From the IMG/VR virus record IMGVR_UViG_3300005673_000046: DNA of 20,757 bases; one strand, given 5' to 3'. This document shows positions 1 to 20,601 of the stretch, in pieces. The position numbers and the translations under genes are program-made. The notes below the pieces were generated by a model. The model was not told where the DNA came from. It did not search any database and saw nothing but the letters and a program-made list of their open reading frames with translations. This DNA is from an uncultured virus (IMG/VR IMGVR_UViG_3300005673_000046) (Duplodnaviria; Heunggongvirae; Uroviricota; Caudoviricetes). Position 1 is the first letter of the stretch; every line of letters starts with the position of its first letter.

Positions 1-247
1 CCGCATGCTCGGCGCGGCGGGTGGCGCGCTCGTAGCAGGCCTGGCCGGCCTGTTGGCTGACCTGCTCCAGCGCCACGCACTGCGCCCAGGACTCCAGCAT
101 GTCGGCTGCCAGGCTGTTCTGTTGTGCCTGCAGCGCCCGAATGCGTGCCTCGCGCTCCTCATCGGCCGATGGCTGCACCAGCAGATGCGTCCCGTAGACC
201 AGCGCCAGCAGCGCGGCCGCGGCGACGGCAATGCTTCGCGGCTTCAT
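1..247 (-). CDS. Hypothetical exported/membrane-anchored protein (3' end runs off window)
   Basis: Not in the ORF track; translated by hand: MKPRSIAVAAAALLALVYGTHLLVQPSADEEREARIRALQAQQ... It has a basic N-terminus plus a hydrophobic stretch, a GGGGAG RBS just upstream on the minus strand, and no stop before base 1. Confidence 0.6.
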   Translation of the reverse strand, partial: MKPRSIAVAAAALLALVYGTHLLVQPSADEEREARIRALQAQQNSLAADMLESWAQCVALEQVSQQAGQACYERATRRAEHA

Positions 248-529
248 GCCCTGCTCCCCTGTCTCAGCCGCTCAGGACGCACACACAGCGACGGCAAGCT
301 CATCGAGCTGCCGACCCTGCGAGTAGGCGCCGCCACGGCTGATGGTCTTCGGCGGCTGGCCGCGGCCGAGGGCATGCCCCTGGCCGAGTTCGTTCGGACG
401 CTGTTGGATGCGCGGGTGTTCGGTGCGGCTCATGTCGAAAGCCTAGCCGTCGATCGCATCCGGCGGGTGGTCGGAACCGGGGCCGCAAAAGGCCCGATTC
501 CGGGGTCGCACTGGGAGGTGCGTCGATGA
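185..529 (+). CDS. Putative phage transcriptional regulator (cII position, ribbon-helix-helix-like); start uncertain
   Basis: The C-terminal part LPTLRVGAATADGLRRLAAAEGMPLAEFVRTLL fits a strand-helix-helix pattern. It is ATGA-coupled to the next gene. The annotated start at 5 overlaps the minus-strand gene; ATG 185 is a nearer in-frame option. Confidence 0.55.
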   Translation: MRPVDQRQQRGRGDGNASRLHALLPCLSRSGRTHSDGKLIELPTLRVGAATADGLRRLAAAEGMPLAEFVRTLLDARVFGAAHVESLAVDRIRRVVGTGAAKGPIPGSHWEVRR

Positions 530-873
530 GCCTGGGGGTGGAGTCCGTCGCCACCGGCATCGAACTCAAGCGCGCCGGCCAGCAGCTCGCGCTGGACTTC
601 TCCGGCTCCTGGGCCGAGGAGGTCGTCATGGAGTTCCGCGGCTGGGCGGCCATCGAGAAAGCCCGCGGCCTGGAGCGCACCACGATCGAGCGGTTCCGCG
701 CCACGGCGCGCCACCAGCCGCCGTCGCACAAGGCGTGGGGCGCGCTGCCGCGCCTGCTCGTCGAGGCCGGGCTGATCGAGCCGGTGCTCGATGACACCGG
801 CCAGCCGGTCTACCGGCGCGCGGCTTCACCCAAGACCCACGCGCATCCGGTGCGCCTGTGGAGGCTGCGCTGA
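526..873 (+). CDS. Phage hypothetical protein (possible winged-helix DNA binder)
   Basis: 115 aa, GC3-rich codons, coupled on both sides; motif PPSHKAWGAL...AGLI...HAHPVRLW. Confidence 0.75.
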   Translation: MSLGVESVATGIELKRAGQQLALDFSGSWAEEVVMEFRGWAAIEKARGLERTTIERFRATARHQPPSHKAWGALPRLLVEAGLIEPVLDDTGQPVYRRAASPKTHAHPVRLWRLR

Positions 874-1802
874 TGGGGGCCAAACTCATCCGCCAGGACA
901 TCCTGGAGTCCGAGCGCGTGGCCAAGCTGCCCATGGAAGGGCGCTGGCTGTTCCTGGCCATCCTGCTGACGGCCGACGACCTGGGCCTGTTCGAGGCCAC
1001 GACGCACCGGCTGCACAAGAAGTCCGACCTCAAGCACGAGCACATCGAGCGGCTGCTGCCCATCCTGGCCGACCTCGACCTGATCCGACTGTACCCCGGG
1101 CCCGGCGCCAGAGTCTTCGGGTTCATCCCCCGCTACGGCCAACGTCTGCGGGTCCGGCGCGTCCGATTCCCCCTCCCGCCCATCGAACTGCTGGCCGGAG
1201 ACGAGGACGCCATCAAGAAATTCAACAACTTAGTCGCCGAACTCGCTGACAAATGCGGCGGATTGCAGCATTCCGCCGCAACGCGCGGCGAAGTGCGGCC
1301 TGAACCTGAACCTGAACCTGAACCTGAACCTGAACCTCCTAACGGAGGAATACCAACCACAGGTTCGCTTCGCTCACCTGTGGTCGTCGCCGGAGCTGGC
1401 GCTCCGGGCGACCAGACCGGGGTAATCCCGAAGACCACGGACCCGGCCAAGCCGTGGCTGGCGGTGGCTGAACGGTGCCCGCACCAGAAGCTCGTTGCGC
1501 TGTACCACGAGCTGCTGCCGACGCTGGACCGCGTCGCGCGCTGGGACGACCGCCGCCAGGCGTTTTCCCGCGGACGCTGGCGCGAGGTGGCCATCGAACG
1601 GCGCTGGCGGGACGAGGAGGAGGGGCTGCGGTACTTCGCCCGGTTCTTCCGCTACGTGGCCACCTGCCCGCACCTGATGGGCAAGAGCCCACCGCAGACG
1701 CCGGGCGGTCCGCCGTTCCAGGCCACGCTGGAGTGGCTGCTGCGGCCGACCAACTTCGTGAAGGTCGTCGAGGGCTTCTACGCCCCGAAGGAACGCACAT
1801 GA
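873..1802 (+). CDS. Phage replication initiator protein (lambda O analogue)
   Basis: TGATG overlap at 871-875. N-terminal RWLFLAILLTADDLG, central (PE)n linker and C-terminal CPHQKLVALYHELLP...ATLEWLLRPTNFVKVVEG, an architecture typical of phage replication proteins. Confidence 0.8.
   Translation: MGAKLIRQDILESERVAKLPMEGRWLFLAILLTADDLGLFEATTHRLHKKSDLKHEHIERLLPILADLDLIRLYPGPGARVFGFIPRYGQRLRVRRVRFPLPPIELLAGDEDAIKKFNNLVAELADKCGGLQHSAATRGEVRPEPEPEPEPEPEPPNGGIPTTGSLRSPVVVAGAGAPGDQTGVIPKTTDPAKPWLAVAERCPHQKLVALYHELLPTLDRVARWDDRRQAFSRGRWREVAIERRWRDEEEGLRYFARFFRYVATCPHLMGKSPPQTPGGPPFQATLEWLLRPTNFVKVVEGFYAPKERT
1299..1334 (+). repeat. Perfect tandem repeat (CCTGAA)x6 encoding a Pro-Glu linker
   Basis: Read directly from the sequence. 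Confidence 0.97.
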
Positions 1803-2233
1803 GCAGAGGTTTCAACCCCGACACCGACGACGAGCCGGCCGGTAGTGCGCCGCCGTCGACCCTGCGCTGCAATGCCCACGGTTGCCCGCACCGCAGGACG
1901 GTGCGCACCGAGCTGGGCCAGCTGTGCAGCGCGCACGCCGCGGCGCCGCCGCACGAATGGCCGGCGCTGACGGCGCATCTGCAGCACCTGGCCGAGCGCG
2001 GCCAGCGCGCGGCGCCGCCGCCGGCGGCGCGTGCCGTGATTCACGACCCGGAGCGGCTGCGCCGTGCCGCGGCAGTGCTGCAGGCGCGCATGAGCGGCGC
2101 CGCAGGTAGCCGCGAATGGGCCTACCGGCTGCGTGAGCGCGAACAGCGCGGCGAGCGGCTGTCCAAGGCGCAGCGCGACGCCTGGCGGGCCGCCATACCG
2201 CGGTCCCTGGACCACGAAGCACAGGAGGCCTGA
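1799..2233 (+). CDS. Hypothetical protein at the helicase-loader (P-like) position, with Cys/His motif
   Basis: ATGA overlap 1799-1802; MSRGFNPD...CNAHGCP...LCSAH...REWAYRLREREQRGE. Function inferred from position only. Confidence 0.65.
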   Translation: MSRGFNPDTDDEPAGSAPPSTLRCNAHGCPHRRTVRTELGQLCSAHAAAPPHEWPALTAHLQHLAERGQRAAPPPAARAVIHDPERLRRAAAVLQARMSGAAGSREWAYRLREREQRGERLSKAQRDAWRAAIPRSLDHEAQEA

Positions 2234-2236
2234 GCC

Positions 2237-2539
2237 ATGCCCCGCGCCGCCAGCACGCCCTTCAACACCTACCGGCCGCCCGAACCGGCGCCGCACACGA
2301 TGCCAGGCTGGAGCGCGGCCGAGAACGCGCGCCGCGCGAAGCGCAAGGCGCTGCGCCTGGAGCCGGATGCACCGCGGGTGCCCAGCGAACCGTGCTTCAC
2401 GGTCTGCCCGACGCCCAGCCGCGAGGTCGTCCTGCCGCCGGGCTACGTGAGCCAGCTCAACCCCGCCGACTGCCGCCCGTGGGCGGCGGCCGCTACCACC
2501 CGAGGAGAACCCGATGAAGCCCCCCGTCAGCGCCGCTGA
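2237..2539 (+). CDS. Phage hypothetical protein
   Basis: GGAGG RBS upstream, 100 aa, fits the operon. Confidence 0.6.
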   Translation: MPRAASTPFNTYRPPEPAPHTMPGWSAAENARRAKRKALRLEPDAPRVPSEPCFTVCPTPSREVVLPPGYVSQLNPADCRPWAAAATTRGEPDEAPRQRR

Positions 2540-2804
2540 GGCCATGGAGTCGGCCCGCGTCGAGCGCGTGCGCGCCGCGCGCGCCATCAAGCATCCCGTC
2601 CAGCTCGAAGCCAACTACTACGGCCCGTGGATGAAGCTGGCCGAGTTCGACGCCGCCGACGACTTGGCCTTCAGCACCTGCCGCCAGGCCTGCGAACTGC
2701 TGGCGTCGGTCGACAAGGCGGCCGCGTTCCGCTTCTCGACGGCGGCCGCACCGCGCCGGGTTCTGGCGACCTACACCCTCAAGACCGGCTGGCAGGAGGC
2801 GTGA
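2514..2804 (+). CDS. Phage hypothetical protein
   Basis: GAGGAG RBS, GC3-rich codons, abuts the next ORF. Confidence 0.7.
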   Translation: MKPPVSAAEAMESARVERVRAARAIKHPVQLEANYYGPWMKLAEFDAADDLAFSTCRQACELLASVDKAAAFRFSTAAAPRRVLATYTLKTGWQEA

Positions 2805-3167
2805 ATGGCCTTCCGCGTCCCTGACCAGTTCCGCGTCACACGCGGCCGCCTGGGCACCGAGCGCGGCTCCGGCAACAACGGCGCCTTCGTCCTCCCGGCG
2901 CCACCGCGGTCGCTGTCGAATGCACGGCTCCACTGCATCGCCACCGACAACTTCGGCTGGGAGCACGTCAGCGTCACGCTGAGCGCGCCGCGCATCCCGA
3001 CCTGGGCAGAGATGTGCTACGTCAAGAGCGTCTTCTGGGAGCCCGAGGACACGGTGCTGCAGATCCACCCGGCCGAGTCGGAGTACGTGGATCTGCACCC
3101 TCACTGCCTGCACCTGTGGCGACCGATCGGCACCAGCTTCCCGGTGCCGCCGACGTTCCTGGTCTGA
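2805..3167 (+). CDS. Conserved phage protein (DUF7694-like)
   Basis: Motif WEHVSV...PTWAEMCYVKSVFW...QIHPAESEYVDLHPHCLHLWRP. Confidence 0.75.
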   Translation: MAFRVPDQFRVTRGRLGTERGSGNNGAFVLPAPPRSLSNARLHCIATDNFGWEHVSVTLSAPRIPTWAEMCYVKSVFWEPEDTVLQIHPAESEYVDLHPHCLHLWRPIGTSFPVPPTFLV

Positions 3168-3170
3168 GCC

Positions 3171-3701
3171 GTGGAAATCCAGCTCGTGCGCCGCGCCGAT
3201 GTCGTCCTCTCCGAGGAGGACAAGGCCGCGCTGCGTCGGCTGGTCACGACCATCGTGTGCGGGCTGGGCGAGGCCAACCAGCGGGCCTGGCTGCGGCTGT
3301 GGGCCCGGATGTGGCGCATGGAGCCCGGCGAAGTCCAGACGATCTGGACGCACAAGGAGCGCCTGGGCTGGTTCCACCGCAAGCACATGGCCCTGGAGAC
3401 GAGGGTCTTCGAGGGGCAGGAGCGGTTCGAGTCCTTCGAGTCCTTCCGCGACTGGCTCAAGATCGGCGCTGGCCACGTCGAATGGCATGCCGGCCCGCGC
3501 GGCGGCATCGTGCCCATCCCGAAGTCGATCAGCTACGCGAGGCTGGGGCAGGACGAGATGGAGGAGTTCCACGCGGCGGCCGTGGCCTTCCTGCGCACCG
3601 AGCGCGCCGCCAAGTGGCTGTGGCCGCGCATGCCGGCCGCGCAGCGTCAGGGTGCGATGGACGCGATCCTGGGCGCGTTCGGCGCCTTCGGGGAAGGCTG
3701 A
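3171..3701 (+). CDS. DUF1367-like nin-region protein
   Basis: Motifs FHRKHMAL, FESFRDWLKIGAG and PKSISYARLGQDEMEEF. Confidence 0.75.
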   Translation: MEIQLVRRADVVLSEEDKAALRRLVTTIVCGLGEANQRAWLRLWARMWRMEPGEVQTIWTHKERLGWFHRKHMALETRVFEGQERFESFESFRDWLKIGAGHVEWHAGPRGGIVPIPKSISYARLGQDEMEEFHAAAVAFLRTERAAKWLWPRMPAAQRQGAMDAILGAFGAFGEG

Positions 3702-3710
3702 TGCAACCCG

Positions 3711-3995
3711 ATGCAGTCCAGGAACAAGCCCTCGATGACTCGCGCGGAGCGCGAGCACGTCGAGCGGGTGAAGTTGCTGCCGTGCTCGGTGTGCGACACC
3801 GGCGGCGGCTACTCGGCGCCGAGCGAGGCGCACGAAATCGAGCAAGGCATGTGGTGGTTGTCAGTCGCGCTGTGCGCGGAGTGCCACCGCGGCAGCGTGC
3901 TCGGATGGCACGGCCAGCGCCGTATCTGGGCGATCAAGAAGATGACCATGCTCGATGCCCTGGCGGTGACGATCCGCCGGCTCATGGGCTACTGA
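3711..3995 (+). CDS. Ref-family/HNH-like zinc-binding nuclease
   Basis: CSVC...HEI...LCAECHRG...GWHG pattern, in a nin-region context. Confidence 0.7.
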   Translation: MQSRNKPSMTRAEREHVERVKLLPCSVCDTGGGYSAPSEAHEIEQGMWWLSVALCAECHRGSVLGWHGQRRIWAIKKMTMLDALAVTIRRLMGY

Positions 3996-4043
3996 TGACG
4001 GCATGCCGGCAGCCGACGATGCCGGCGACACAGGAGAGGCACC

Positions 4044-4151
4044 ATGCCCACCAAGACCGCCCCGATGAAGAACGCCAAGCCCAAGCCCGGCCAGAAGCCG
4101 CCGCCGGCCAAGGAGAGCAAGGCCGAGAAGCGCCGCGGAAAGGCCTGCTGA
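4044..4151 (+). CDS. Small Lys/Pro-rich basic peptide (35 aa)
   Basis: AGGAGAGG RBS; MPTKTAPMKNAKPKPGQKPPPAKESKAEKRRGKAC; GC3-rich codons; fills the gap before the Q-like gene. Confidence 0.65.
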   Translation: MPTKTAPMKNAKPKPGQKPPPAKESKAEKRRGKAC

Positions 4152-4161
4152 AGGTCGCGCG

Positions 4162-4770
4162 ATGACCGTGCCGGGCGATCGCCCCACCATCCCAGAGCGG
4201 TATGCGCGCGCACTGGAGTCCTCGCATCTGGAAGCCACGCCAGAGCGCCAGGGCGACGTGGACGTGCTCATCGCCGCGGGGTGGGCCAAGGATTCGCTCG
4301 GCACGGCCCTGTACCGACTGCGCGCGGAGTACGACGCGGTGAACAAGCGCGAGCTCGCACTGGTCGCCAACAGCCGCATCGCGCGCGCCATCGTGATGTC
4401 GCAGCTGCAGTCGCTGCAGCCGACGAAGCTGCGCCTGACCGCCTACGCGCTCAAGCAGGCCACCATCAACCGCGTGATGCTCAACGACGCCGACGTCATG
4501 CGCATTGCCGCGGCCGCGCTGGCGCACTGGATCGACGATCGCTGCCCGGCCTGCACGGGCCGCGGGTTCAGCGGCGGCGCTGGCCAGCCCATCGTGCTGT
4601 GCTCTCTGTGCCGCGGCACCGGCACGCAGCGCCTGAGCGGGAGCCGATCCAAGCGCCTCGGCCAGAACAACACCGAACACCAATTCGGCGCTCTGCTGCT
4701 GGAGCGCATGGACCGAAAGACCGCCTGGGTCGCAAGCACCATGGCCCGCTGGCTGCGGAGGTTCGCGTGA
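4162..4770 (+). CDS. Antitermination Q-like protein with zinc finger
   Basis: CPACTGRG...CSLCRGTG zinc finger, about 200 aa, located after nin-like genes as lambda Q is. Confidence 0.7.
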   Translation: MTVPGDRPTIPERYARALESSHLEATPERQGDVDVLIAAGWAKDSLGTALYRLRAEYDAVNKRELALVANSRIARAIVMSQLQSLQPTKLRLTAYALKQATINRVMLNDADVMRIAAAALAHWIDDRCPACTGRGFSGGAGQPIVLCSLCRGTGTQRLSGSRSKRLGQNNTEHQFGALLLERMDRKTAWVASTMARWLRRFA

Positions 4771-4988
4771 GCGACGACCTGGTGCCCGCCGCGGTGATCG
4801 AGAGGATGACCGGCTATCGCCAGCCGGCCGCCCAGCTCGCCGAGCTGCACCGGCAGGGCTTCTGGCGGGCTCGTCGCCTTCGCACCACCGGCAAGGTCGT
4901 GCTCGAGCGGCCGCACTTCGAGGCCGTGAGCAGCGGCGCAGACGCGCAGTTCGGCCGCACGCGCCAGCCGAAACTGGCCCCACCGTAA
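4767..4988 (+). CDS. DUF4224-like small DNA-binding (excisionase-like) protein
   Basis: GTGA overlap; IERMTGYRQPAAQLAELHRQG...GKVVLERPHFEAV...PKL. Confidence 0.7.
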   Translation: MSDDLVPAAVIERMTGYRQPAAQLAELHRQGFWRARRLRTTGKVVLERPHFEAVSSGADAQFGRTRQPKLAPP

Positions 4989-4998
4989 GGAGACGAAT

Positions 4999-5505
4999 GT
5001 GCTCAGCGCATCCCGCGCCGAACAGATTGAGCGCGGCCTCAACGAGATGGCCAAGCGCGTGCTGCGATCCGTTCCGGTCAACGAGACGTGGACCACACAC
5101 CAGATCGACCAGGACTTGCGTCGCGCCGGCAGCCGAGCCGACCGTGACGTCATCCTGGGATGCCTGGGCCGCCTCGTGAAGGCCGGGCTGATCGACGAAC
5201 CAGGCCCGGGTCACTTCCGACGCCGCAAAGTCCGTCCACCGTACATCACCGAAGTCACGAAGCCCAGCGCACAACCACAAGGAGACGTCATCGTGCCTGA
5301 CGCAACGCCGCACGCCGCGGAACGAGCATCGACCCTGGATCAGCTCGCAAAGGTCGCCTCCGAGCTGCGCGCTGCCGCGGCGCGCCTGGAGGAGATGGCG
5401 CGCGACATCGACGACCTGGCCGTCGAGATCGTCGAGGCGCAGGAGAAGACCAGCGCCGACGTGGTCAAGCTGCGCCAACTGCAGGCGCTTCTCAAGAACC
5501 TGTGA
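4999..5505 (+). CDS. Hypothetical protein, N-terminal winged-helix-like domain plus C-terminal coiled coil
   Basis: TAAGGAG RBS; ILGCLGRLVKAGLIDEPGPGHFRR followed by a heptad-rich tail. Confidence 0.75.
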   Translation: MLSASRAEQIERGLNEMAKRVLRSVPVNETWTTHQIDQDLRRAGSRADRDVILGCLGRLVKAGLIDEPGPGHFRRRKVRPPYITEVTKPSAQPQGDVIVPDATPHAAERASTLDQLAKVASELRAAAARLEEMARDIDDLAVEIVEAQEKTSADVVKLRQLQALLKNL

Positions 5506-5585
5506 CCCTGGAGAAGACGATGCACACACCCACGATCAAGCACTACCGCGTCACCGTCTGGGCCGCTGGCCCCGGAGCGTGAAGC

Positions 5586-5765
5586 ATGGGAACGACGACG
5601 GTATGGGTGCTGGTGTTCTTCATCGGCGGATGGACGCACAACGGAGGGCCTGCGGTGGTTGACAACATTGCTAGCGCGCAAGAGTGCGAGAAGCTGGCGC
5701 AGGCGATCCAAGACATTCGCGGCGAGGCGCGCTATCGGTGTGTGCCGGTGGCGAAGGTGAAGTAG
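5586..5765 (+). CDS. Small hypothetical protein (59 aa), cassette-like gene A
   Basis: Translated by hand: MGTTTVWVLVFFIGGWTHNGGPAVVDNIASAQECEKLAQAIQDIRGEARYRCVPVAKVK. GGAG RBS at 5574-5577; the stop is 2 nt before attC-like site 1. Confidence 0.7.
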   Translation: MGTTTVWVLVFFIGGWTHNGGPAVVDNIASAQECEKLAQAIQDIRGEARYRCVPVAKVK

Positions 5766-5767
5766 CG

Positions 5768-5830
5768 GCCCAACGTTGCCGGTAAGCGGCCGGGCCGCCA
5801 GGCCTGGTCCGCTTGACTGGCGGGTTGGGC
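5768..5830 (-). other. Integron attC-like recombination site 1 (63 bp)
   Basis: Minus strand reads GCCCAAC-ccgcc-AGTCAAGC-ggaccaggcc-tggc-ggcccggcc-GCTTACC-ggcaac-GTTGGGC. This gives RYYYAAC/GTTRRRY ends, 5 and 6 nt spacers, 8/7 nt L boxes and two unpaired bases (+ strand G5815, T5808). Confidence 0.88.
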
Positions 5831-5859: not shown

Positions 5860-6057
5860 ATGCACACAGCACCGATGTCAGACAGCCAAGGCGAGTTCGC
5901 CGAGTTCAAGACCCAGCCCGACGTGCCTTGCCGCAAGTGCGGCGTGCACGCGGTGAGCATGCGCGAGTGGGAAAGCTCGTGCGGCGGCTGGGAAGACTAC
6001 CAGTACAAGTGCCACCACTGCGGCCATACGTGGTGGGTGGAAGGAATCGACGCATGA
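5860..6057 (+). CDS. Small zinc-ribbon protein (65 aa), cassette-like gene B1
   Basis: GAAGGAG RBS; CRKC...CHHCGHTW. Confidence 0.75.
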   Translation: MHTAPMSDSQGEFAEFKTQPDVPCRKCGVHAVSMREWESSCGGWEDYQYKCHHCGHTWWVEGIDA

Positions 6058-6281
6058 CGTACTGGTGGCTCGTTGAGAACTTCACTGCCGAAGGGCATTC
6101 CACCGGGCTCTATATGGCGTGCCAAGTGAACATGACCCTGACCGCCGACGTGCACAAGGCTCGCAAGTTCCGCCGCCAACGCACGGCCGAGTTCCGTGCG
6201 CTGGACATGCGTGACGCGAGGCGCGGCGACTGGCGGGCCGTGGAGCACGGCTTCGACGACAGCAAGACGCCCAACGGATAG
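6054..6281 (+). CDS. Small hypothetical protein (75 aa), cassette-like gene B2
   Basis: ATGA overlap with B1; MTYWWLVENF...AVEHGFDDSKTPNG; stops inside attC-like site 2. Confidence 0.7.
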   Translation: MTYWWLVENFTAEGHSTGLYMACQVNMTLTADVHKARKFRRQRTAEFRALDMRDARRGDWRAVEHGFDDSKTPNG

Positions 6282-6323
6282 TTGACCTGCGCCGCAGGCG
6301 TCAGGTCCAACGCAGGGTTGGAC
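6269..6323 (-). other. Integron attC-like recombination site 2 (55 bp)
   Basis: Minus strand reads GTCCAAC-cctgc-GTTGGACC-tgacgcc-tgc-ggcgca-GGTCAAC-tatcc-GTTGGGC. Same box structure and same two-bulge asymmetry as site 1; the second spacer is 5 rather than 6 nt. Confidence 0.78.
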
Positions 6324-6340
6324 CGGCGCCGCGCGCGTCG

Positions 6341-6383
6341 CAAACCGGTTTGGCTGCCCAGCAGGCCGGGGCGCCGCCACAGT
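6341..6383 (+). promoter_or_regulatory. Candidate activator-dependent late promoter (Mor/C-type site plus -10-like hexamer)
   Basis: Perfect 12-bp palindrome CAAACCGGTTTG (6341-6352); CACAGT at 6378-6383, 7 nt before ATG 6391. Mu has a C-dependent promoter upstream of gene I. Confidence 0.5.
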
Positions 6384-6390
6384 GCACGCC

Positions 6391-7578
6391 ATGCCCCGGC
6401 CGCTGCCCCTCATCGCCCTGCTCGCCGCCACCATGCCGGTGGCCGCGGACGGCACCGCGCAGCTGCTGCCTGTGGGCGAATTCACGGCGCGTGACGGGCG
6501 GCCCGGCAACGGCCTGACCTGGAAGATCACCGATGCACAGGGGCGGCTGCTCGCCGAGCGGCTGAACCTGGTCGCGTCGCTGACGCCCATCGTCTACGAC
6601 TACGACCACGCGACGATGACGACGCGCGGCACCGGCAACCTGGCGCCCGCTGCAGGCTGGATCAAGAGCGTGAGCTGGGTCGAAGGCCAGGGCCTCATGG
6701 CCAAGGTCGAGTGGACCGAGCGCGCCAGGAAGCTGATCGAGGCCAAGGAATACCGCTACTCGAGCCCCGTCATCGAATACGACGAGGACACCGGCGAGGT
6801 CACCGGCGTGCTGATGGCCTCCCTCGTCAACTACCCCGCGCTGCTGGGCATGGACGCCGTGCAGGCGGCCCTGTCCGGGTTCGCTTCCTCGTCAACCAAG
6901 CCGCCCGGCCGCGAGGCCGGCACCCACGGAGACCCCGCCATGTCCAAGACCATCGCCCTTGCCGCGCTGCTGCCGCTGATCGGCCTGGGCGCCAGCGCCA
7001 CCGAAGACGAAGCCGTGGCCCGCGTCACCGCCCTGCAGGGCGAGCTCGAGCAGCTGCGCAAGCGCCCGCTGCTCACCGAGGCGCTGGCCACCGCGCTGGG
7101 CGTGGCGGCGACCGCCGACGAGGCCGCCGCGCTGAGCGCCGTGGCCACGCTCAAGACGGCCGCCGGCGGCGCCGGCGACGCGGTGCGGCAGCTCACGGCC
7201 CTGCAGGGCGAGCTCGCCACGCTGCAGGGCGAGCTGGCCCAGATGCGCACCGCGCAGGCCGAGACCGAGATCGCGCGCCTGGTCGACGACGCCATCGCCG
7301 CCGGCAAGTTCGCGAACGCGCAGCGCGACCAGCTGCTGGCCACCGGCCGCAAGGACCGCGCGCTGCTGCAGGGCCTGATCGCCAGCGCCGTGCCCATCGC
7401 GGCACTGGCCGGCACCAACCTGCAGGCCACCCGCGCCGCGGCCGCCGCGGCCGCCGGCGGCGCCGCCCCGCAGATGACGCCCGAGGCGCGCCAGATCGCC
7501 GCGCTGATGGGCATCACCGAGGCCGAGTACCTGAAGTTCAAGGCCGACCAGGCCAAGGCCCAGGGCGCCACCGCCTGA
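6391..7578 (+). CDS. Mu-like prohead protease (gpI) with C-terminal scaffold
   Basis: QLLPVGEFTARDGRP, YDYDHAT, APAAGWI, VEWTERA...EYRYSSPV, SLVNYPALLGM, followed by an Ala-rich helical region. Confidence 0.93.
   Translation: MPRPLPLIALLAATMPVAADGTAQLLPVGEFTARDGRPGNGLTWKITDAQGRLLAERLNLVASLTPIVYDYDHATMTTRGTGNLAPAAGWIKSVSWVEGQGLMAKVEWTERARKLIEAKEYRYSSPVIEYDEDTGEVTGVLMASLVNYPALLGMDAVQAALSGFASSSTKPPGREAGTHGDPAMSKTIALAALLPLIGLGASATEDEAVARVTALQGELEQLRKRPLLTEALATALGVAATADEAAALSAVATLKTAAGGAGDAVRQLTALQGELATLQGELAQMRTAQAETEIARLVDDAIAAGKFANAQRDQLLATGRKDRALLQGLIASAVPIAALAGTNLQATRAAAAAAAGGAAPQMTPEARQIAALMGITEAEYLKFKADQAKAQGATA
6940..7578 (+). CDS. Nested in-frame scaffolding protein (Mu gpZ analogue)
   Basis: Internal GGAG (6928-6931) and an in-frame ATG at 6940, right after the protease domain. 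Confidence 0.7.
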   Translation: MSKTIALAALLPLIGLGASATEDEAVARVTALQGELEQLRKRPLLTEALATALGVAATADEAAALSAVATLKTAAGGAGDAVRQLTALQGELATLQGELAQMRTAQAETEIARLVDDAIAAGKFANAQRDQLLATGRKDRALLQGLIASAVPIAALAGTNLQATRAAAAAAAGGAAPQMTPEARQIAALMGITEAEYLKFKADQAKAQGATA

Positions 7579-7623
7579 CCGGGCCGCGCCGACGCAACGC
7601 CAACCCCCGCACCGGAGCCTCAC

Positions 7624-8034
7624 ATGGCCGCCACCAAAGACATCAACACCCGCCAGGTCGCGGGCCTGCGCCGCGCCTTCCCGGTGGCGGCCAGCACCCT
7701 CATCCATGCCGGCACCATCGCCTGCCTCAACGCCAGCGGCCTGCTCACCAAGGGCGCCGTCAGCACCACGCTGAAGGCCGTGGGCGTGGCGCCCAGGCGC
7801 ATCGACAACGCCAGCGGTGCGGCCAGCGCCATCCGCGGCGAGGTCGAGACCGGCGTCTTCGGCCCCTTCAAGAACAGCGCCGCCGGCGACGAGATCGTGC
7901 TGGCCGACGTCAACGCCAACTGCTTCATCGTGGACGACGAGACGGTGGCCAAGACCAACGGCACCAACACCCGCAGCGTGGCCGGCGTCGTGTGGGACGT
8001 CACCGCCGAGGGCGTCTGGGTCAAGTTCAACTGA
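7624..8034 (+). CDS. Putative head decoration/cement protein
   Basis: 136 aa, beta-rich, between protease and capsid; CFIVDDETVAKT...RSVAG...GVWV. Confidence 0.75.
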   Translation: MAATKDINTRQVAGLRRAFPVAASTLIHAGTIACLNASGLLTKGAVSTTLKAVGVAPRRIDNASGAASAIRGEVETGVFGPFKNSAAGDEIVLADVNANCFIVDDETVAKTNGTNTRSVAGVVWDVTAEGVWVKFN

Positions 8035-8074
8035 CCGCCCGCACCCACACCCAGCACACCGACCGGAGAGCCCC

Positions 8075-8977
8075 ATGCTGATCAACTCCACCAACCTGCG
8101 CGAGCTGGACACCCAGGTGCAGCTCCTCTTCAACCGCGGGCTGCAGCGCACGGTGACGCCGTGGCAGAGCATCGCCCTGCAGTCCAGCAGCAACGCGGCG
8201 GAGAACCTGTACCCGCTGTTCAAGGAGCTGGGCGGCATCCGCGAGTGGCTGGGCGACCGCGTGGTCCAGAACGTGGAGCGCGATGGCTTCCGGCTGGTCA
8301 ACCGCGACTGGGAGGCCACCTGGGGCATCGACCGCAACCACATTCTGGACGACAGCTTCGGCACCCTGGCGCCGATGTTCGAGATGGCCGGCCAGGAGGT
8401 GGCCAGCTTCCCCAGCGAGAAGGCCTACGGCCTGCTGCGCGTCGGCCACGAGACGCTGGGCCCGGACGGCCAGTTCTTCTTCGACACCGACCACCCGCTG
8501 GCCAGCGGCGTGGGCAGCAACGACATGGGCGGCACCACGCTGCCCGTGGAGCAGGCCTGGTACCTCATCGACGAGAGCCGCGTGTTCAAGCCGGTGATCT
8601 ACCAGCTGCGCCAGTCCTTCAACCTGGTGCGCATGTTCAACCCGGACGACCACAACGTCTTCTTCCTCAAGAAGTACATCTGGGGCGTGGACGGCCGCGC
8701 GGCCTTCGGCTTCAGCCCCTTCTGGCAGCTGGCCATGCGCAGCCGCCAGGCGCTGGACGAGACCAACGTCAAGGCCGCGATGGTGGCCATGAACAAGCAG
8801 CGCAACCACCAGGGCAAGCCCATCGGCGCGTCCGCGACCACCATCGTGGTGCACCCCGAGCAGGGCGAGCTGGCGCGCGACCTGTTCAGCCGCGAGCTCA
8901 TCGCCAGCGGCGGCGCGGGCGTGACCAACACCCTGCGCAACCGCCTGCGCGTGGTGGTGGCGCACGAGCTGCTGTGA
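8075..8977 (+). CDS. Mu-like major capsid protein (gpT family)
   Basis: GGAG RBS; IREWLGDR, NRDWEATWGIDRNHILDD, DGQFFFDTDHP, WYLID...KPVIYQ, GVDGRAAFGFSPFWQLA. Confidence 0.93.
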   Translation: MLINSTNLRELDTQVQLLFNRGLQRTVTPWQSIALQSSSNAAENLYPLFKELGGIREWLGDRVVQNVERDGFRLVNRDWEATWGIDRNHILDDSFGTLAPMFEMAGQEVASFPSEKAYGLLRVGHETLGPDGQFFFDTDHPLASGVGSNDMGGTTLPVEQAWYLIDESRVFKPVIYQLRQSFNLVRMFNPDDHNVFFLKKYIWGVDGRAAFGFSPFWQLAMRSRQALDETNVKAAMVAMNKQRNHQGKPIGASATTIVVHPEQGELARDLFSRELIASGGAGVTNTLRNRLRVVVAHELL

Positions 8978-9007
8978 CCCGCCGCTGAACCCCGAGGAGA
9001 CCTGAAC

Positions 9008-9229
9008 ATGGCCAAGAACCCGCAGACCCCCTCCGGCAAGGCTGCAGCGCTGCGCGTGGTGAGCAAGAGCCCGATGGGCGCCTTCCGCCGCGCGGGCTAC
9101 ACCTTCACCGCCGAGCCCACGGTCATCCCGCTGGCCGAGCTGAGCGCCGAGCAGGTGCGGGCCATCAGGGCGACGGCGCTGCTGGACGTGACCGAGACCG
9201 AGATCGAGCCGGCCAAGGCCGAGGGCTGA
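9008..9229 (+). CDS. HI1506-like Mu head-associated small protein
   Basis: GAGGAG RBS; FRRAGYTFT...LSAEQVRAI...LLDV; immediately after the capsid gene. Confidence 0.75.
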   Translation: MAKNPQTPSGKAAALRVVSKSPMGAFRRAGYTFTAEPTVIPLAELSAEQVRAIRATALLDVTETEIEPAKAEG

Positions 9230-9339
9230 CCGCACAACCCACGCGGAAGGCAGGGGCCCGCAAGGGCCCGTGAGTGTCCCCGCCGGCCAGGTGCCGGCGG
9301 GGCTCTCCGAAGAGCCAACGCACCCACCGCCACCCCACC

Positions 9340-9771
9340 ATGAGCGCCACGCCCTACACCGAGCCGCAGGCGCTCGTCGACGCCTTCGGCGAAGCCGAGC
9401 TGGTGGAGCTGACCGACCGCGCCACCCCGCGCGCGAACGAGGTGGACTTCGTGGTGGCCCAGCAGGCGTGCGACCGCGCCACCGCGGAGATCAACGCCGC
9501 GCTGGCCGGCCGCTACAGCCTGCCGCTGCAGACGGTGCCCGAGCTGCTGCGCTACCTGGCGCTGGACCTGGCGCGCTTCTACCTCTACGACCGCGAGCCG
9601 CCGAAGATCGTGCAGGCGCGCTTCGACGCGGCGCGCGAGACGCTGCGCGAGCTGGGCACCGGGCGCAAGCACCTGGGCGCGGACGCGGCCGGCACCAGCG
9701 TGGCCGAGCGCCCGCAGGACCTGGCCGTGCTGAACGCCGGCGCGAAGGACTTCGCACGGGGGGCCTGGTGA
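9340..9771 (+). CDS. Mu gp36-like head-tail adaptor (DUF1320)
   Basis: FGEAELVELTDR...ATAEINAALAGRYSLPL..VPELL...DLARFYLY. Confidence 0.9.
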   Translation: MSATPYTEPQALVDAFGEAELVELTDRATPRANEVDFVVAQQACDRATAEINAALAGRYSLPLQTVPELLRYLALDLARFYLYDREPPKIVQARFDAARETLRELGTGRKHLGADAAGTSVAERPQDLAVLNAGAKDFARGAW

Positions 9772-10226
9772 CGTGGAGCACCGACGCGCTGTGGCTGGGC
9801 CCGGCGATCGCCGCGCGGCTGCGCGAACAGCTGCCGGCGCTGCGCACGGCCGAGGTGATGGACGACCTGACCCCGGACGCCTACCCGAAGCAGCTGCCCG
9901 CCGCGGTGGCCATGCTGCAGGACCTGCGCCCGCAGGGCAGCGACGGCCGGGTGAGCACGGCCCTGGTGGAGGCCGACTGGCTGGCCGTGCTGGTGGTGGA
10001 CAGCCGCCGCGCGGACCGCGACGCGCAGCGCGCGGCCGCCGGCCCGCTGATCAGCCAGGCGGTGCGCGCGCTGCACGGCTGGACGCCGCCCGGCTGCGCG
10101 CGGCCCATGAGCTGGGTGCCCGGCGCGCCGCGGCCCTACTTCACGCGCAACTTCACGGCCTACCCGCTGCTGCTGCGCACCGCCTTCACCACGCGCAGCG
10201 AGCCCGGCCTTCCCGCGCTGACCTGA
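9768..10226 (+). CDS. Mu gp37-like tail terminator/completion protein
   Basis: GTGA overlap; IAARLREQLP...WLAVLVV...AGPLISQAVRALHGWTP...AYPL; synteny. Confidence 0.8.
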   Translation: MTWSTDALWLGPAIAARLREQLPALRTAEVMDDLTPDAYPKQLPAAVAMLQDLRPQGSDGRVSTALVEADWLAVLVVDSRRADRDAQRAAAGPLISQAVRALHGWTPPGCARPMSWVPGAPRPYFTRNFTAYPLLLRTAFTTRSEPGLPALT

Positions 10227-10256
10227 CCTGAAACCTTCTTTCGCACGGAGCAACCC

Positions 10257-11015
10257 ATGAGCGAAGTCGTCACCAAGAGCTATGTCGGCATCGGCCGCGT
10301 GTGGGTGCGCCCCTTCGGCGTGACCGTGCCTTCCGTGCCGGCGCGCCGGCACGTGGGCAACGTGAGCGGGCTGGTGCTGCGCCACACCCTGGACATCCAG
10401 CGCCAGCCGGACTTCACCCGCCCGGGCGGCGGCACGGCCATCCGCCGCGAGCGGATCGAGGCGGTGGAGGCCAGCATGACCTGGCTGCACTTCAGCCCCG
10501 AGAACTGGGCCGTGGCGATGGCCGCCACGCTGCACGACGTGGCCGCCGGCACTGGCGTGGTGGAGGTGGTGAAGGCGCACCGGGGCAGCATCAGCGAGCT
10601 GGCGAACCTGCCCACCAGCATCACCAGCGTGACCGACGGCGCCACGCCCACGCCGGTGACCTTCACCGCGGGCGACGACTACGAGCTCAGCGCGGCGGGC
10701 GTCTACATCCCGACCGGCAGCGCCATCCCGGACGGCAGCGACATCACCGTCACGTACAGCCACGCCGCGCAGAAGCGGCTGGAGGGCAGCATGGGCACGG
10801 CCACGGTGCTGGACGTGCTGTTCGAGGGCCTGAACGACGCCGACACGCAGAAGCCCGTGGTGCTGAACCTGTGGCGCATGAGCGTGCCGCCGGCCGAAGA
10901 GCTGAACCTGATCGGCCTGGAACTGGGCGAGATGCAGCTCAGCGCCGAGCTGCTGAAGGACCCCAGCAAGGGCGCGAACGTGAGCGCGTTCTACCGCGCC
11001 CGCATGCTGCCCTGA
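10257..11015 (+). CDS. Major tail tube protein (non-contractile tail)
   Basis: GGAG RBS; SYVGIGRVW...VGNVSGL...LFEGLNDA; lies between the gp37-like gene and the tape measure gene; no sheath gene present. Confidence 0.8.
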   Translation: MSEVVTKSYVGIGRVWVRPFGVTVPSVPARRHVGNVSGLVLRHTLDIQRQPDFTRPGGGTAIRRERIEAVEASMTWLHFSPENWAVAMAATLHDVAAGTGVVEVVKAHRGSISELANLPTSITSVTDGATPTPVTFTAGDDYELSAAGVYIPTGSAIPDGSDITVTYSHAAQKRLEGSMGTATVLDVLFEGLNDADTQKPVVLNLWRMSVPPAEELNLIGLELGEMQLSAELLKDPSKGANVSAFYRARMLP

Positions 11016-11053
11016 CGCGCGCCGCCGCGCGCGCATAGCCTCCCGCACTGCTC

Positions 11054-14000
11054 ATGGCCACCGGCGGCGTGCGGGAGGTTGGCGTCCGCATCAAGGTCGG
11101 TGCCACCGGCCTGGAGGAAGCCACCAGGCTAAGCCGGAGCCTGAAGGACCTGGGCGTCGACGCCGAGGCGCTGGACAAGCGCGCCGGCGAGCTCTCGGCG
11201 GAACTGACCAGGCTGGGCCAGCAGCAGGCGCTGATCGACGGCTTCAAGCGCAAGAAGGCGGCCACCGAGGAGGCCGCCAAGGCGCTGCAGCAGGCGCAGG
11301 AAGCCGCCCAGAAGCTGGGCCGCGAGTTCGGGGCCACCGAGGAGCCCACCAAGCGCCAGGAGCAGGCCCTGGCCAGGGCGCGCGCCGAGGTCACGAAGGC
11401 CAAGACGGCCTACCAGGAAAGCGGACTGGCGCTGCAGACGGCCAGAAAGGGGCTTTCCGACGCCGGCATCGGCAGCGACGAGCTGGCGGCCGCACAGGTG
11501 CGGGTGCGCAAGCAGACGACCGAGACGCAGCAGGCCGTCGCCGAGCTGACCAACCGCTACCGCGCCGCGGAGGGCCAGGCCAAGCTCAGCGCGCAGCAGC
11601 AGGCGCAGCTGGCCCGCGCCACAACCGAGGCAGGCAGCGCCAGCACGCGCGCTGCGAACGAGCAGGCGGCCGCCGGCCAGAAGGTGGCCGGCAGCCTGGA
11701 GGGTGTGCAGCAGCGCCTGAGCGCCATCGGCAAGCTGGCGGTGGGCGGCGTGCTGGGTGCGGGCAGTCTGAATTTCCTGCGCGGCGTCACGGCCACCGCC
11801 GACGCCTTCAACAACCTGCGCGCGCGCATGCAGCTCGTCACCGGCGAGGGGCCGGCGCTGGATGCGGCACTGCTGTCGGTGCAGGAGATCGCGCTGCGCA
11901 CGGGTGCGAGCCTGGAGAACACGGGTACCCTGTTCACGCGCGTGCTCTCCGCCGGCCGCGAGATGGGCCTGGCGCAGGCCGACGCGCTGCGCCTGACCGA
12001 GAGCATCAATCAGGCGGTGGCCATCAGCGGCGCCAGCGCGGCCGCCTCCGACGCGGCCATCACGCAGCTGATCCAGGGCCTGCAGAGCGGTGTGCTGCGG
12101 GGCGAGGAGTTCAACAGCGTCGTCGAGCAGAGCCCGCGGCTCGCGCAGGCGCTGGCCGACGGCATGGGCGTGGCGCGCAGCGAGCTGCGCGGCCTGGCCC
12201 AGGACGGGAAGATCAGCGCCGAGACCGTGATCCAGGCGCTGCAGTCGCAGGCCGACGTGCTGGAGCGCGAGTTCGGCCAGCTGCCGCAGACCGTGGGCCG
12301 CGCGGTGGAGAACCTGAACACCGCCTGGTCGGTGTTCGTGGGCAACCTGGACCGCACGACCGGCTTCACCTCGGCGGTGGCCAGCGGCATAGGCTTCATC
12401 GCCGACAACCTGGACGAGCTGGCGGCGGTGGCCGGCCGTGCCGGCGCCGTGATCGTGGCGGCGCTGGCCGTCAAGGCGGCCGGGGCCCTGCGCGACCTGG
12501 CCACCCAGGCGCTGGCCAGCGCGAGCAGCTTCGGCGTGCTGCTGACCAGCATCGAGAAGATCCCGCGCACGGTGAACATCGCGATCGCGGTGACGGGCTT
12601 CGAGGTCGGCTTCCAGATCGGCCAGATGCTGCGGGAGAACAGCGCGCTGGCCAGGCAGCTGGGCGTGGCGGTGACGGAGTTCTTCACCAACATCGTCCGC
12701 GACCTGCAGTTCGTGGTGGAGGCCGGCCGGGCCATCTTCACCGACGACACCATCGGGGCCGCGTTCGAGCGGCTCAAGCAGCGCGCGGCGGAGCAGCAGG
12801 CCATCTTCGCGGACCTGTACGCCGACGCCCGCCGGGCGCCGCAGGCGGTGGCGCAGGCGGCCGCCGGCGCCGAGCAGAGCCTGGGTGCGCTGGGCGCCCA
12901 GGCCCAGGGCGTGGGCCTGCAGCTCGGCCGGGCCGGCGCTGCCGGTGCCGCCGGAGTGCAGCAGCTTGGCCAGGCGGCCGACACCGCGGCCGGCGCGCTG
13001 GCGGCGCTGGTCGCCGGCGCCACGGCGGCGCTGCCCAAGGTGGGCGAGACGGCTGCGGCGCAGGCCCGCGAGCTGGCCAGGCTGGCGGAGGGAAGCGAGG
13101 AAGTGCGCCGCCGGCTGGCGGACGGCATCCCGGCGGCGCTGGAGAAGCTCAACGGCACCCAGCTCGTGGAGTTCCGCGCGGAACTCGAGCGCGCGCTGCA
13201 GGGGTCCGCAAAGGGCGCGGAGGTGCTGCAGGCCGCCTTGCAGGAGGTGGGTCGTCGCGCCGCGCAGGCGCTGGGCGTGGATCTGGCAGGAGCCAGCGCC
13301 ACGGTGACCCGGCAGTTCGCGCAGCAGATGGATGCGCTGTCAGCGCTGATACGGGCCCTGCCCGTGCTCGAGCGCACCGGCGTCGACACCGCCCGCGTGG
13401 TGGCCGACGCGCTGGCCAAGATGGTGGACGGCGCCAGGAGCCAGGCCGAGCTGGACGCACTGCGCACGCGCATCGAGGCGCTGGGCAAGGCCGGAGAGCT
13501 GAGCCGCGAGCAGGTCGTGCGGCTCATGGACACCATCACCGCCAAGGCGGCCGAGGCGGCCAGCAGCGTGAGCCTCATCGACGAGGCGCTCAAGACATTC
13601 GGCATCACGACCCAGGCCGAGCTGAAGAAGACGGCCGACAACTTCAAGCAGGCCTGGGACCGCATCCGGGAGAACTCCACCGTCACGCTGGACCAGAAGC
13701 GCCAGGCCTTCGTGCAGTACGCGAACGCCGCGATCGCGGCCAACGGCGGCGTGATCGACAGCCAGATCCGCAGCCAGGCGCAGGCCTTCAAGCTGGCCGT
13801 GGAGGTGGACAAGACCGGCAAGGCGGTCGTCAGGGCGATGGGCGAGGGCGCCTTGGCCAGCGACCAGCTGAGCGGGGGCTTTCGCACCGCGGCCGAACAG
13901 GCACGCAAGCTGGGGGCCGAGGTGGCGACCCTTACAAGCCAGGTTGGCAACCTCACCGCTGGCTGGGAAAAGGCCCTGCGCGCGCGCAACGCCGCCGTGC

Positions 14001-14488
14001 AGAGCACGCTCACCTGGGAAGGCCGCGACGCCGCCGGCAACCTGGACCGCACCTTCGTGGGCAGTAGCGNNNNNNNNNCCTTCACTCCGCCCCCGGACAA
14101 CAGCGGCGACTGGGTGTGGATGGCCACCGCCGCCAGGCCGGGCGGCGAGTGGGTGCTGACGCCGGAGGCGAGCGCGCGGCGGTTTGCCGACCAGGAGCAG
14201 GCGCGCGGCCTGGTGCCGGTGCGCGACCCGTCAGGCTCCGTGCGCTATGTGCAGCCCAGCGGTGCACCTTCCACCGGCGCACCGTCGGCGGCCGCACCGG
14301 CCTCTGCGCCCGTGCCTGCCCCTGCGCCTGCACCGCAGCCCAGTGCAGCGCCGGCGCCGACGAGCGTGGTGGAGATCCGCTTCACGCGCGGCGACGGCAG
14401 CTACGTGCCAGCGGTCGTGAGTTCGCAGCAGGCGGCCGACGAGCTGGCCGCGCTGTTGCGCGAAGAGATGGAGCGCCGGGGCGGATGA
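11054..14488 (+). CDS. Tail tape measure protein (contains a 9-N gap at 14070-14078)
   Basis: 1144 aa, Ala/Gln-rich helical; motif AAITQLIQGLQSGVLRGEEFNSVVEQSPRLAQALADG. Confidence 0.95.
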   Translation: MATGGVREVGVRIKVGATGLEEATRLSRSLKDLGVDAEALDKRAGELSAELTRLGQQQALIDGFKRKKAATEEAAKALQQAQEAAQKLGREFGATEEPTKRQEQALARARAEVTKAKTAYQESGLALQTARKGLSDAGIGSDELAAAQVRVRKQTTETQQAVAELTNRYRAAEGQAKLSAQQQAQLARATTEAGSASTRAANEQAAAGQKVAGSLEGVQQRLSAIGKLAVGGVLGAGSLNFLRGVTATADAFNNLRARMQLVTGEGPALDAALLSVQEIALRTGASLENTGTLFTRVLSAGREMGLAQADALRLTESINQAVAISGASAAASDAAITQLIQGLQSGVLRGEEFNSVVEQSPRLAQALADGMGVARSELRGLAQDGKISAETVIQALQSQADVLEREFGQLPQTVGRAVENLNTAWSVFVGNLDRTTGFTSAVASGIGFIADNLDELAAVAGRAGAVIVAALAVKAAGALRDLATQALASASSFGVLLTSIEKIPRTVNIAIAVTGFEVGFQIGQMLRENSALARQLGVAVTEFFTNIVRDLQFVVEAGRAIFTDDTIGAAFERLKQRAAEQQAIFADLYADARRAPQAVAQAAAGAEQSLGALGAQAQGVGLQLGRAGAAGAAGVQQLGQAADTAAGALAALVAGATAALPKVGETAAAQARELARLAEGSEEVRRRLADGIPAALEKLNGTQLVEFRAELERALQGSAKGAEVLQAALQEVGRRAAQALGVDLAGASATVTRQFAQQMDALSALIRALPVLERTGVDTARVVADALAKMVDGARSQAELDALRTRIEALGKAGELSREQVVRLMDTITAKAAEAASSVSLIDEALKTFGITTQAELKKTADNFKQAWDRIRENSTVTLDQKRQAFVQYANAAIAANGGVIDSQIRSQAQAFKLAVEVDKTGKAVVRAMGEGALASDQLSGGFRTAAEQARKLGAEVATLTSQVGNLTAGWEKALRARNAAVQSTLTWEGRDAAGNLDRTFVGSSXXXXFTPPPDNSGDWVWMATAARPGGEWVLTPEASARRFADQEQARGLVPVRDPSGSVRYVQPSGAPSTGAPSAAAPASAPVPAPAPAPQPSAAPAPTSVVEIRFTRGDGSYVPAVVSSQQAADELAALLREEMERRGG

Positions 14489-14874
14489 GCACGACCACCA
14501 TCACCGTCGGCGCCACCGTGCTGACCCTGGACCACCCGCTGCTGTGGGAGGACGAATTCGGCTGGGAGCCCGTGGTCCAGACGCGCCGCACCACGGTGAC
14601 CGGCGCGCAGAACGTTCAGGCGCAGGCGATGCTGGCCGGCCGGCCGGTGACGCTGGCCAGCGGCGGCTGGGTGCGCCGCAGCCAGCTGCTGCAGCTGCAG
14701 GCCTGGCGCGAGCAGCCCGGCCTGGTGCTGCAGGTGAGCCCGCGCGGCGGCACGCCGATGTCGGTGACGTGGGACACCAAGGGCGGCGCGCTGCAGGCCG
14801 ACATGGTGCAGCCCTGGGCCTTCCCTGAAGACGGCGAGCTGTACCGCGTGCGGCTGCGCTTCTTCACCGTCTGA
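14485..14874 (+). CDS. Putative distal tail/tail tip protein
   Basis: ATGA overlap; LLWEDEFGWEPV.Q...TGA...AGRPVTL; first gene after the tape measure gene. Confidence 0.75.
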   Translation: MSTTTITVGATVLTLDHPLLWEDEFGWEPVVQTRRTTVTGAQNVQAQAMLAGRPVTLASGGWVRRSQLLQLQAWREQPGLVLQVSPRGGTPMSVTWDTKGGALQADMVQPWAFPEDGELYRVRLRFFTV

Positions 14875-14897
14875 CCACCAAAGACTAGACCACTGCC

Positions 14898-16523: not shown

Positions 16524-16537
16524 AAGCCTGACCCATC

Positions 16538-17710
16538 ATGGCCATCGACGTCCTCCTGTACCACTCCGGCATGTCCGGCGCGCCCGGCGCGAACCTCCGC
16601 GTGGCCGGCGGCCTGACGGATCTGCTCAACGCCTGCCTGGTGGACGGGTTCAATGTCCGCGACATCACCGGCATCGTGCGCAGCGGCACCACCGCGACGG
16701 CCACGATCGACGGCAGCAACCCGTGGCAGATCGGCGGCGTGATCGAGCTCGCCGGGGCCGACCAGGCGGCGTACAACGGCCGCCAGCGCGTGACCGCGCG
16801 CACCGACAGCACGGTGAGCTTCGAGGTCAGCGGCAGCCCCGCCACGCCCGCCACCGGCACGATCACCGCGAAGATGCCCGGCGCCGGCTGGACGAAGAAC
16901 GTGCTGGGCACCAATCGGGTGGCCTACCGCTCCATCGTGCCGGGCAGCGAAGGGCACTGGCTGCAGGTGGAGGACGACAACCCCTACGCCGACAGCAACG
17001 TGGGCGCGCGCACGCGCATGGCGGTCAACCTGACCGGGCTGGACACCGCGGACCAGCTGGGGGAGCAGTGCCGCATCCAGAAGGGCAGCAGCACCGGCTG
17101 GGTGCTGGTGGCGGACGGGCGCAGCTGCTACATCGTCATGTCGGCCTCGGACACCTTCATGTTCGGCGAGGCGCAGCCGTACCTGTCCGGGGATCAGTAC
17201 GCCTTCTTTCAAAGCCGCGGAGAGAATGCTTCGGCGTCGGCAAGCGTCTTCGGCACCACTGCGGTGACGGGGCGCGTGTTCCCCGCCATCATGTACGCGA
17301 ACGCTGACTCTTCGGTCAACCGGGGCGCCAGCTGGCTGCGGGGCTCATCGCAGATCGGGGCGCACGTCGAGGGCACGCCAGTATTCCCCACGGTGACCTA
17401 CGTCTCTTCCGCCACGATGACGATCGACCGCTGGCAGTCGCTGGTGAACCCGCCAGTCGTGGACGACTCGATTGCCGTCGCGCCGCTGGTCATGACCGAG
17501 TTCAACGGCACCGCGTACCGCCTGCGCGGCGTGGCGCGCGGCGCGTACCTCCCCGCGACGCGGCTGCTGTCCGACAGCTTCGTCAACAACATCCAGATGC
17601 TCGACGACGTCACCATCAACGGCGACGTGCGGCGCCTGGCGGTGTGCCGCTTCAGCGCCTCCGGCCTCGCGCAGATCGCCTTCGACGTGGGCGACAGCTG
17701 GGACGACTGA
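16538..17710 (+). CDS. Putative tail fibre/receptor-binding protein
   Basis: N-terminal MSGAPG...LLNACLVDGF...IELAGADQAAYNG...ATGTITAK..GAGW followed by a divergent C-terminal part; position in the tail module. Confidence 0.7.
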   Translation: MAIDVLLYHSGMSGAPGANLRVAGGLTDLLNACLVDGFNVRDITGIVRSGTTATATIDGSNPWQIGGVIELAGADQAAYNGRQRVTARTDSTVSFEVSGSPATPATGTITAKMPGAGWTKNVLGTNRVAYRSIVPGSEGHWLQVEDDNPYADSNVGARTRMAVNLTGLDTADQLGEQCRIQKGSSTGWVLVADGRSCYIVMSASDTFMFGEAQPYLSGDQYAFFQSRGENASASASVFGTTAVTGRVFPAIMYANADSSVNRGASWLRGSSQIGAHVEGTPVFPTVTYVSSATMTIDRWQSLVNPPVVDDSIAVAPLVMTEFNGTAYRLRGVARGAYLPATRLLSDSFVNNIQMLDDVTINGDVRRLAVCRFSASGLAQIAFDVGDSWDD

Positions 17711-17713
17711 TCC

Positions 17714-18076: not shown

Positions 18077-18089
18077 CGAAGACCGACGT

Positions 18090-20519: not shown

Positions 20520-20601
20520 CGCAATTTTTGATCGCACCGCGAAAGTCGCGGGGCGCTTCAAATATCTCAGGGAATCGGCCGACTTTTCTCGCGGCGCTTC
20601 A
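20520..20601 (+). repeat. Mu-type right end with candidate transposase-binding repeats, terminating in CA
   Basis: TCGCGGGGCGCTTCA (ends 20560) and TCGCGGCGCTTCA (ends 20601) in an AT-richer non-coding tract; host coding sequence begins at 20602. Confidence 0.75.

Follow-up and report, generated by a model that had tools for sequence, protein, structure and literature searches.

A public virus genome that passes from a podovirus into a Mu-like phage at an attC-like box is very likely an assembly chimera

Repeat-induced chimeric contigs arise in short-read (de Bruijn) metagenome assembly. In the Mu-like phages of Pseudomonas, the interval between genes G and I is presumably the anti-CRISPR locus (RGP G). 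Clusters of attC sites are also found in phage genomes that lack an integron integrase (phage-borne CALINs; Qi et al. 2023, PMC9892861), and five of six tested phage attC sites recombined with IntI1 (PMC9892861). The accessible parts of that paper do not state the strand of the genes relative to attC and label no carrier as Mu-like. Beyond it, the literature covered, which excludes subscription papers, yielded no attC cassettes in Mu-like phages and no reversed arrays in phages.

The record examined here (IMG/VR IMGVR_UViG_3300005673_000046) is rated 100% complete. The window, by which we mean the whole stretch of DNA that was analysed, comprises the last 20,757 nt of a single 82,757-nt contig (C1). 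An early region with an O-like initiator (phrog_345, E 7e-14) is followed in it by Mu-like late genes, which begin at 6391 with the gene I protease (PF10123, E 2e-76). The initial annotation had suggested a fusion of two prophages by deletion or recombination at an attC-like site, a hybrid or helper-dependent element, or a mis-assembly. We conclude with high confidence that the record is no hybrid phage and that its join is an assembly chimera of two genomes: A, a 68,253-nt circular podovirus, and B, a Mu-like phage of ~42 kb. The features on which this reading draws are given below in window coordinates; L024 and L029 are the 20-kb portions, to which all readings apply, of a 53.4- and a 57.3-kb contig, and runs are denoted X1 to X6.

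1..5767, + strand: early/replication region of A, with O-like initiator, NinB-like gene and small ORFs (profile matches); the A-circle contig is identical over C1 57,860-67,914
5768..5830, - strand: attC-like site 1, specific to A and reversed relative to the genes; fold z -4.4 on the + strand, with an L-box bulge opposite to that of a classical cassette
5860..6276, + strand: segment common to A and B, 417 nt with two small genes; 3 differences to L024/L029, 0 to L026 (one end of the A-circle contig)
6254..6276, + strand: 23-nt word identical to the contig start, which also opens a separate 14,461-nt contig with the Mu-like part alone
6269..6323, - strand: attC-like site 2 (GCCCAAC...GTTGGAC), DNA fold z = -2.9; left box common to A and B, body and right box those of B
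6324..6390, + strand: region upstream of gene I, native to B and including the palindrome 6341-6352; the same in L024, L029 and run X5
6391..19940, + strand: late genes of B, namely protease I, gpT capsid, gp36, tail terminator, tail tube, tape measure and tail proteins (profile matches)
20540..20601, - strand: right end of B; the X1 and X2 contigs both stop at 20601, and a second contig continues into another flank
20602..20757, no strand: variable flank, likely host DNA, different from the 60-nt flank of L037

The two phages on the contig

Profile searches of the called genes in the window returned no match to terminase, gpF/gpG, MuA/B, Mor or lysis families, in agreement with the initial annotation. 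The inference that the element itself lacks packaging and lysis genes did not survive, as those of A lie upstream on the same contig and the lysis, packaging and transposition genes of B lie on other public contigs. The remaining genes of A occupy contig positions 1-62,000 and include a P22-like portal, both terminase subunits (TerL and TerS), capsid, tail fibres, a CHAP-domain endolysin, a weak spanin match and a tyrosine integrase. A is a temperate podovirus distantly related to F116 and CF418P1. No holin was named by profile among the called genes of A or B, the putative Q gene (4162-4770) had no match in PHROGs, Pfam or NCBIfam, and blastn against isolated phages returned no match for the join region or for the cassette row of A. 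The A genome also encodes a 5,447-aa DarB-like virion protein (L001:3620-19963, - strand) with inorganic pyrophosphatase, DUF6884, RadC-like JAB and helicase domains. Directly past the integrase lies a tRNA-Arg(TCT) gene (L001:3472-3618), and inspection by eye found 11 nt of its anticodon-loop region duplicated in front of it; this copy is a possible attP core, which hints at an excised form of A. Adjoining the lysis genes is a DUF1501 and DUF1800 gene pair (L004:294-3576, - strand), a combination that is usually cellular.

Comparison of the contig with itself revealed that positions 1-23 are the same 23-nt word as window 6254-6276. Since the word that starts the contig recurs at the join, A closes on itself there, which predicts a circular genome of 68,253 nt. 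Exactly this length (68,308 - 55 = 68,253) is obtained from a 68,308-nt metagenome contig whose two 55-nt ends match. The two ends of this contig that were compared (10,055 and 10,020 nt; L023 and L026) are 100% identical to A, and its path leads from the cassette through the attC of A to contig position 24. On C1, the sequence past the 23-nt word is likewise a different attC body behind the same left box (contig 24-101), followed by a row of sites and small genes that reaches the integrase of A.

To the right of 6276, the window is 99.5-99.8% identical to L024 and L029 (9.6 kb compared), in which B continues unbroken through the site into upstream sequence that is not from A. The order upstream is amidase, gp27, TerL, Portal_Mu, gpF, gpG and five small accessory genes, then an attC-like site (9878-9974 in L029) and finally the two-gene cassette. 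By the gene order in L029, B has the late arrangement lysis-terminase-portal-F-G-(accessory)-I-T. A virus contig of 14,461 nt, which starts with the 23-nt word, contains the Mu-like part alone. Another, of 27,245 nt and 99.99% identical to L029 over 9,959 nt, encodes a transposase (phrog_310, E 4e-74), a transposition ATPase, Mor, GemA, Gam and a repressor, from which the early genes point leftward. The Mu-type transposition and regulation genes of B were recognized by phrog_310, phrog_296 and PF08765, with PF07352 just under the cut-off, and by phrog_491; Pfam Mu-transpos_C matched neither B nor any control. The total of about 42 kb for this Mu-like siphophage was obtained by adding pieces. 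Its right end is fixed, with two different flanks past 20601, and its bottom strand starts there with TG, which we take to be a Mu-type end. The best capsid matches of B among isolates are 37-38% identical and mostly from Pseudomonas phages of 36-39 kb, and no relative of its protease was found in species genomes.

Several further features of B were recorded. In the interval between gpG and the cassette, L029:9330-9554 encodes an Acb2/Tad1-family hairpin protein (PF24729, E 2e-17) that also matched PDB chains named p26 (E 1e-11), which we take to be Acb2. It is likely a counter-defence gene, and the accessory slot before gene I in which it lies is presumably where Pseudomonas Mu-like phages keep anti-CRISPR genes. 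The left arm contains, between repressor and amidase (L032:5543-9935), tail-fibre-like and laminin-G genes and a sigma-70-type gene (PF04542, E 5e-15), an unusual position for these genes in a Mu-like phage. In the window, the tape measure gene follows the tail tube gene directly (11015-11054), leaving no space for tail assembly chaperone genes, and the intact B contigs align across this stretch. A weak PHROG label of portal for 9768-10223 was rejected in favour of the tail terminator indicated by Pfam. Local assembly gaps occur at 14070-14078, 18093-18094 and 18300; run X2 has 38 letters where the window has two Ns and 17 extra letters at 18300, and the ORFs at 18090-18600 are therefore unreliable as assembled.

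Coverage and alternative paths at the join

The interval between site 2 and gene I contains a perfect 12-bp palindrome (6341-6352) that is separated from the attC-like hairpin (6269-6323) by 17 bp (6324-6340), as first annotated. From its position the palindrome is likely a late-promoter element. The hairpin body of site 2, the 17-bp gap and the palindrome all belong to B and are also present in intact B contigs. The claim that the fusion lies exactly at an attC-like site thus holds in that the join coincides with site 2, and requires correction in that the boundary between the two genomes is the left box (6276/6277) and not the 17-bp gap.

Depth and graph data were taken from assembled Logan contigs. 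Runs X1 to X4 belong to a single study, and the contig may derive from X1 and X2; X5 is the only clearly independent study and spans 531 nt of the window, and the ERZ and IMG/VR contigs may share one campaign. The comparison of coverage across the join, suggested at the outset, revealed a step. Depth to the left and right of 6276 was 95-102 and 9-14 in X1 (a drop of about 7-fold) and 812-1037 and 49 in X2 (about 18-fold); it was 9-19 and 6-10 in X4 (about 2-fold), and X3 had no step at this position (3.5-6 versus 4-5). The ratio therefore varies between runs, as for separate replicons. The contig has 11 Ns, every one of them in the low-depth B part. In the X1 graph, the cassette forms a unitig of 417 nt (5860-6276, 135x) that is entered both by an A unitig (95x) and by a 2,773-nt non-A unitig (14.3x), and which the Mu unitig leaves (13.7x). 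In X2, the 31-mer that exits the window after 6276 has a depth of 950 versus 70 for the 31-mer that continues in it; the entry path of B was absent among the matches listed for this run. X5 covers 5860-6392 together with the non-A upstream sequence of B.

A repeat common to both genomes at the join, a depth step and both parents unjoined elsewhere all argue for mis-assembly, the one among the readings first offered that the coverage step in X1 and X2 and the separate parents bear out. Very likely the assembler walked along the early operon of A into the cassette common to A and B and, at 6276, took the rarer exit into the gene I region of B, the exit proper to A having presumably been used already to start the contig, as the repeated 23-nt word suggests. 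A stable hybrid, a deletion-fused prophage or a helper-dependent element, with lambdoid early and Mu-like late genes and without packaging or lysis genes, is consistent with the gene order inside the window taken alone, and we regard it as extremely improbable. The podovirus to which the left part belongs has its structural and lysis genes complete on the same contig, A and B each have packaging and lysis genes of their own and occur in intact, unjoined forms, and across the join the depth falls about 7-fold in one run and 18-fold in another.

Another alternative is a minority of real cointegrates, in which circular A has recombined into B through the shared cassette, by homologous recombination over 218-417 nt or by attC x attC recombination, and the contig represents the right-hand junction. 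The order on C1 (cassette end, all of A, cassette, right arm of B) is that of the right part of such a cointegrate; A has RecT-like and exonuclease genes, A and B co-occur in the same runs, and contig graphs alone give the same picture for a cointegrate and for two separate genomes. However, in X1 the upstream unitig of B (14.3x) suffices to explain all the depth seen downstream (13.7x), another public assembly has a break at the 23-nt word rather than joining A to B, and intact B and circular A were assembled elsewhere. We therefore consider real cointegrates very unlikely, though somewhat less so than a stable hybrid, and retain mis-assembly of two separate phages as the explanation of the record. 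As a chimera of two phages, the public record is unsuitable as the genome of a hybrid.

The shared cassette and its attC-like sites

The cassette encodes a Zn-ribbon-like protein (5860-6057) and an ORF without a known family (6054-6281). The copies in A and B are 99.3% identical, differing at 5994, 6048 and 6058, where the window has the alleles of A, and their last 218 nt (6059-6276) are identical. In six aligned sequences the shared part ends one base past the AAC in the left box of site 2. The join falls on an attC box since the attC crossover triplet is where the shared cassette ends, and in general mis-joins at cassettes of this kind will fall exactly on such sites and resemble site-specific fusions, which we offer as a warning. 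The cassette or its second gene was found in further viral and metagenome contigs (3 + 2 virus matches and 11 metagenome matches, some of which are A or B), and at the five loci with called genes it lies within rows of attC-like sites among small phage genes. Run X6 contained only diverged pieces of it, and an Rfam match on three cassette loci was dismissed as one chance hit.

The sites were evaluated by the attC box and strand rules in the accessible part of Nivina et al. 2016 (PMC5027507). They have R boxes of the form RYYYAAC...GTTRRRY, a hairpin and a bulged base in the L box, and their L boxes are similar to the ones in the R100 aadA1 control. At the strict threshold C1 has 4 sites, compared with 4 in 20 shuffles. 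The classical arrangement, in which the attC top strand carries the gene and the site follows it, was not found. Instead, when sequences were oriented cassette-forward, 43 of the 43 strict sites in 13 sequences had the reverse asymmetry, a count from loci that were picked by the shared cassette and hence are not independent, while the R100 aadA1 control was classical. Matches in classical orientation that appeared at a looser threshold (2 in C1 and 2 in L007) were discarded, being no more frequent than in shuffles (0-4 each).

In the cassette row of A, 4 of 5 pairs of boxes that face one another across a cassette are complementary, and the fifth has a single mismatch. In B, where the cassette lies between two sites, the outer boxes and the inner boxes are each perfectly complementary, as would be expected after one insertion into a lone site. 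Of 23 segment pairs with a common 3' end, none shared the downstream hairpin; of 23 with a common 5' end, 8 shared the upstream hairpin. These counts lean towards the reversed model, but the pairs are mostly from one cassette family, chosen with a pattern of our own, and 15 of 23 fit no single crossover side. Some attC bodies contain a ribosome-binding-like site and an ATG (L022:976-1061 and L019:4950-5036, gene-sense coordinates, by eye), and the downstream gene may begin inside the attC hairpin.

The integron integrase profile TIGR02249 had no match in the contig, including the integrase of A, and profile searches of the called genes in the left arm of B returned no match to integrase families. 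We infer that the cassette moved between the phages by integron-type recombination, and exchange of attC-bounded cassettes that reaches the G-I slot of a transposable phage is a plausible candidate process. As a tentative proposal, which we think somewhat more likely to fail than to hold, an integron integrase of the host might move reversed attC cassettes from one temperate phage to another, and also into the G-I anti-defence slot of a transposable phage, where one cassette would sit inside a lone attC with outer boxes GTCCAAC/GTTGGAC. What remains real once the chimera is set aside is an attC-flanked two-gene cassette common to an unrelated podovirus and Mu-like phage in one community. The pair of copies provides a concrete, testable case of whether integron machinery moves genes between phage families.

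Comparison with known systems

A shares with the F116-like podoviruses a P22-like portal, a tyrosine integrase, a giant virion protein and a similar genome size. It is only a distant relative, with a capsid 47% identical to that of Achromobacter phage CF418P1 and 34% to that of Pseudomonas phage F116, and differs in having an attC-like array between its early genes and its integrase. B resembles the Mu-like siphophages of Pseudomonas (D3112 group; the accessible part of Cazares et al. 2014, PMC4378225) in its transposase, ATPase, Mor, Gam, gp27, TerL, portal, F, G, I and T, as well as in a non-contractile-type tail, variable flanking DNA and accessory genes from G to I. In contrast to the members of that group described there, the slot in B holds an Acb2/Tad1-family gene and an attC-flanked cassette, and the early genes run leftward from the repressor. 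What sets the present case apart from the phage CALINs described in the accessible part of PMC9892861 is the reversal of the sites with respect to the genes and the presence of a transposable phage among the carriers.

The record itself behaves as other repeat-induced chimeras do, with a join at the end of a repeat, a repeated word at the contig start, a depth step, alternative paths and separate parents. It differs from them in that the repeat is an attC-bounded cassette, and the join therefore lies on the box of a recombination site and mimics a site-specific event.
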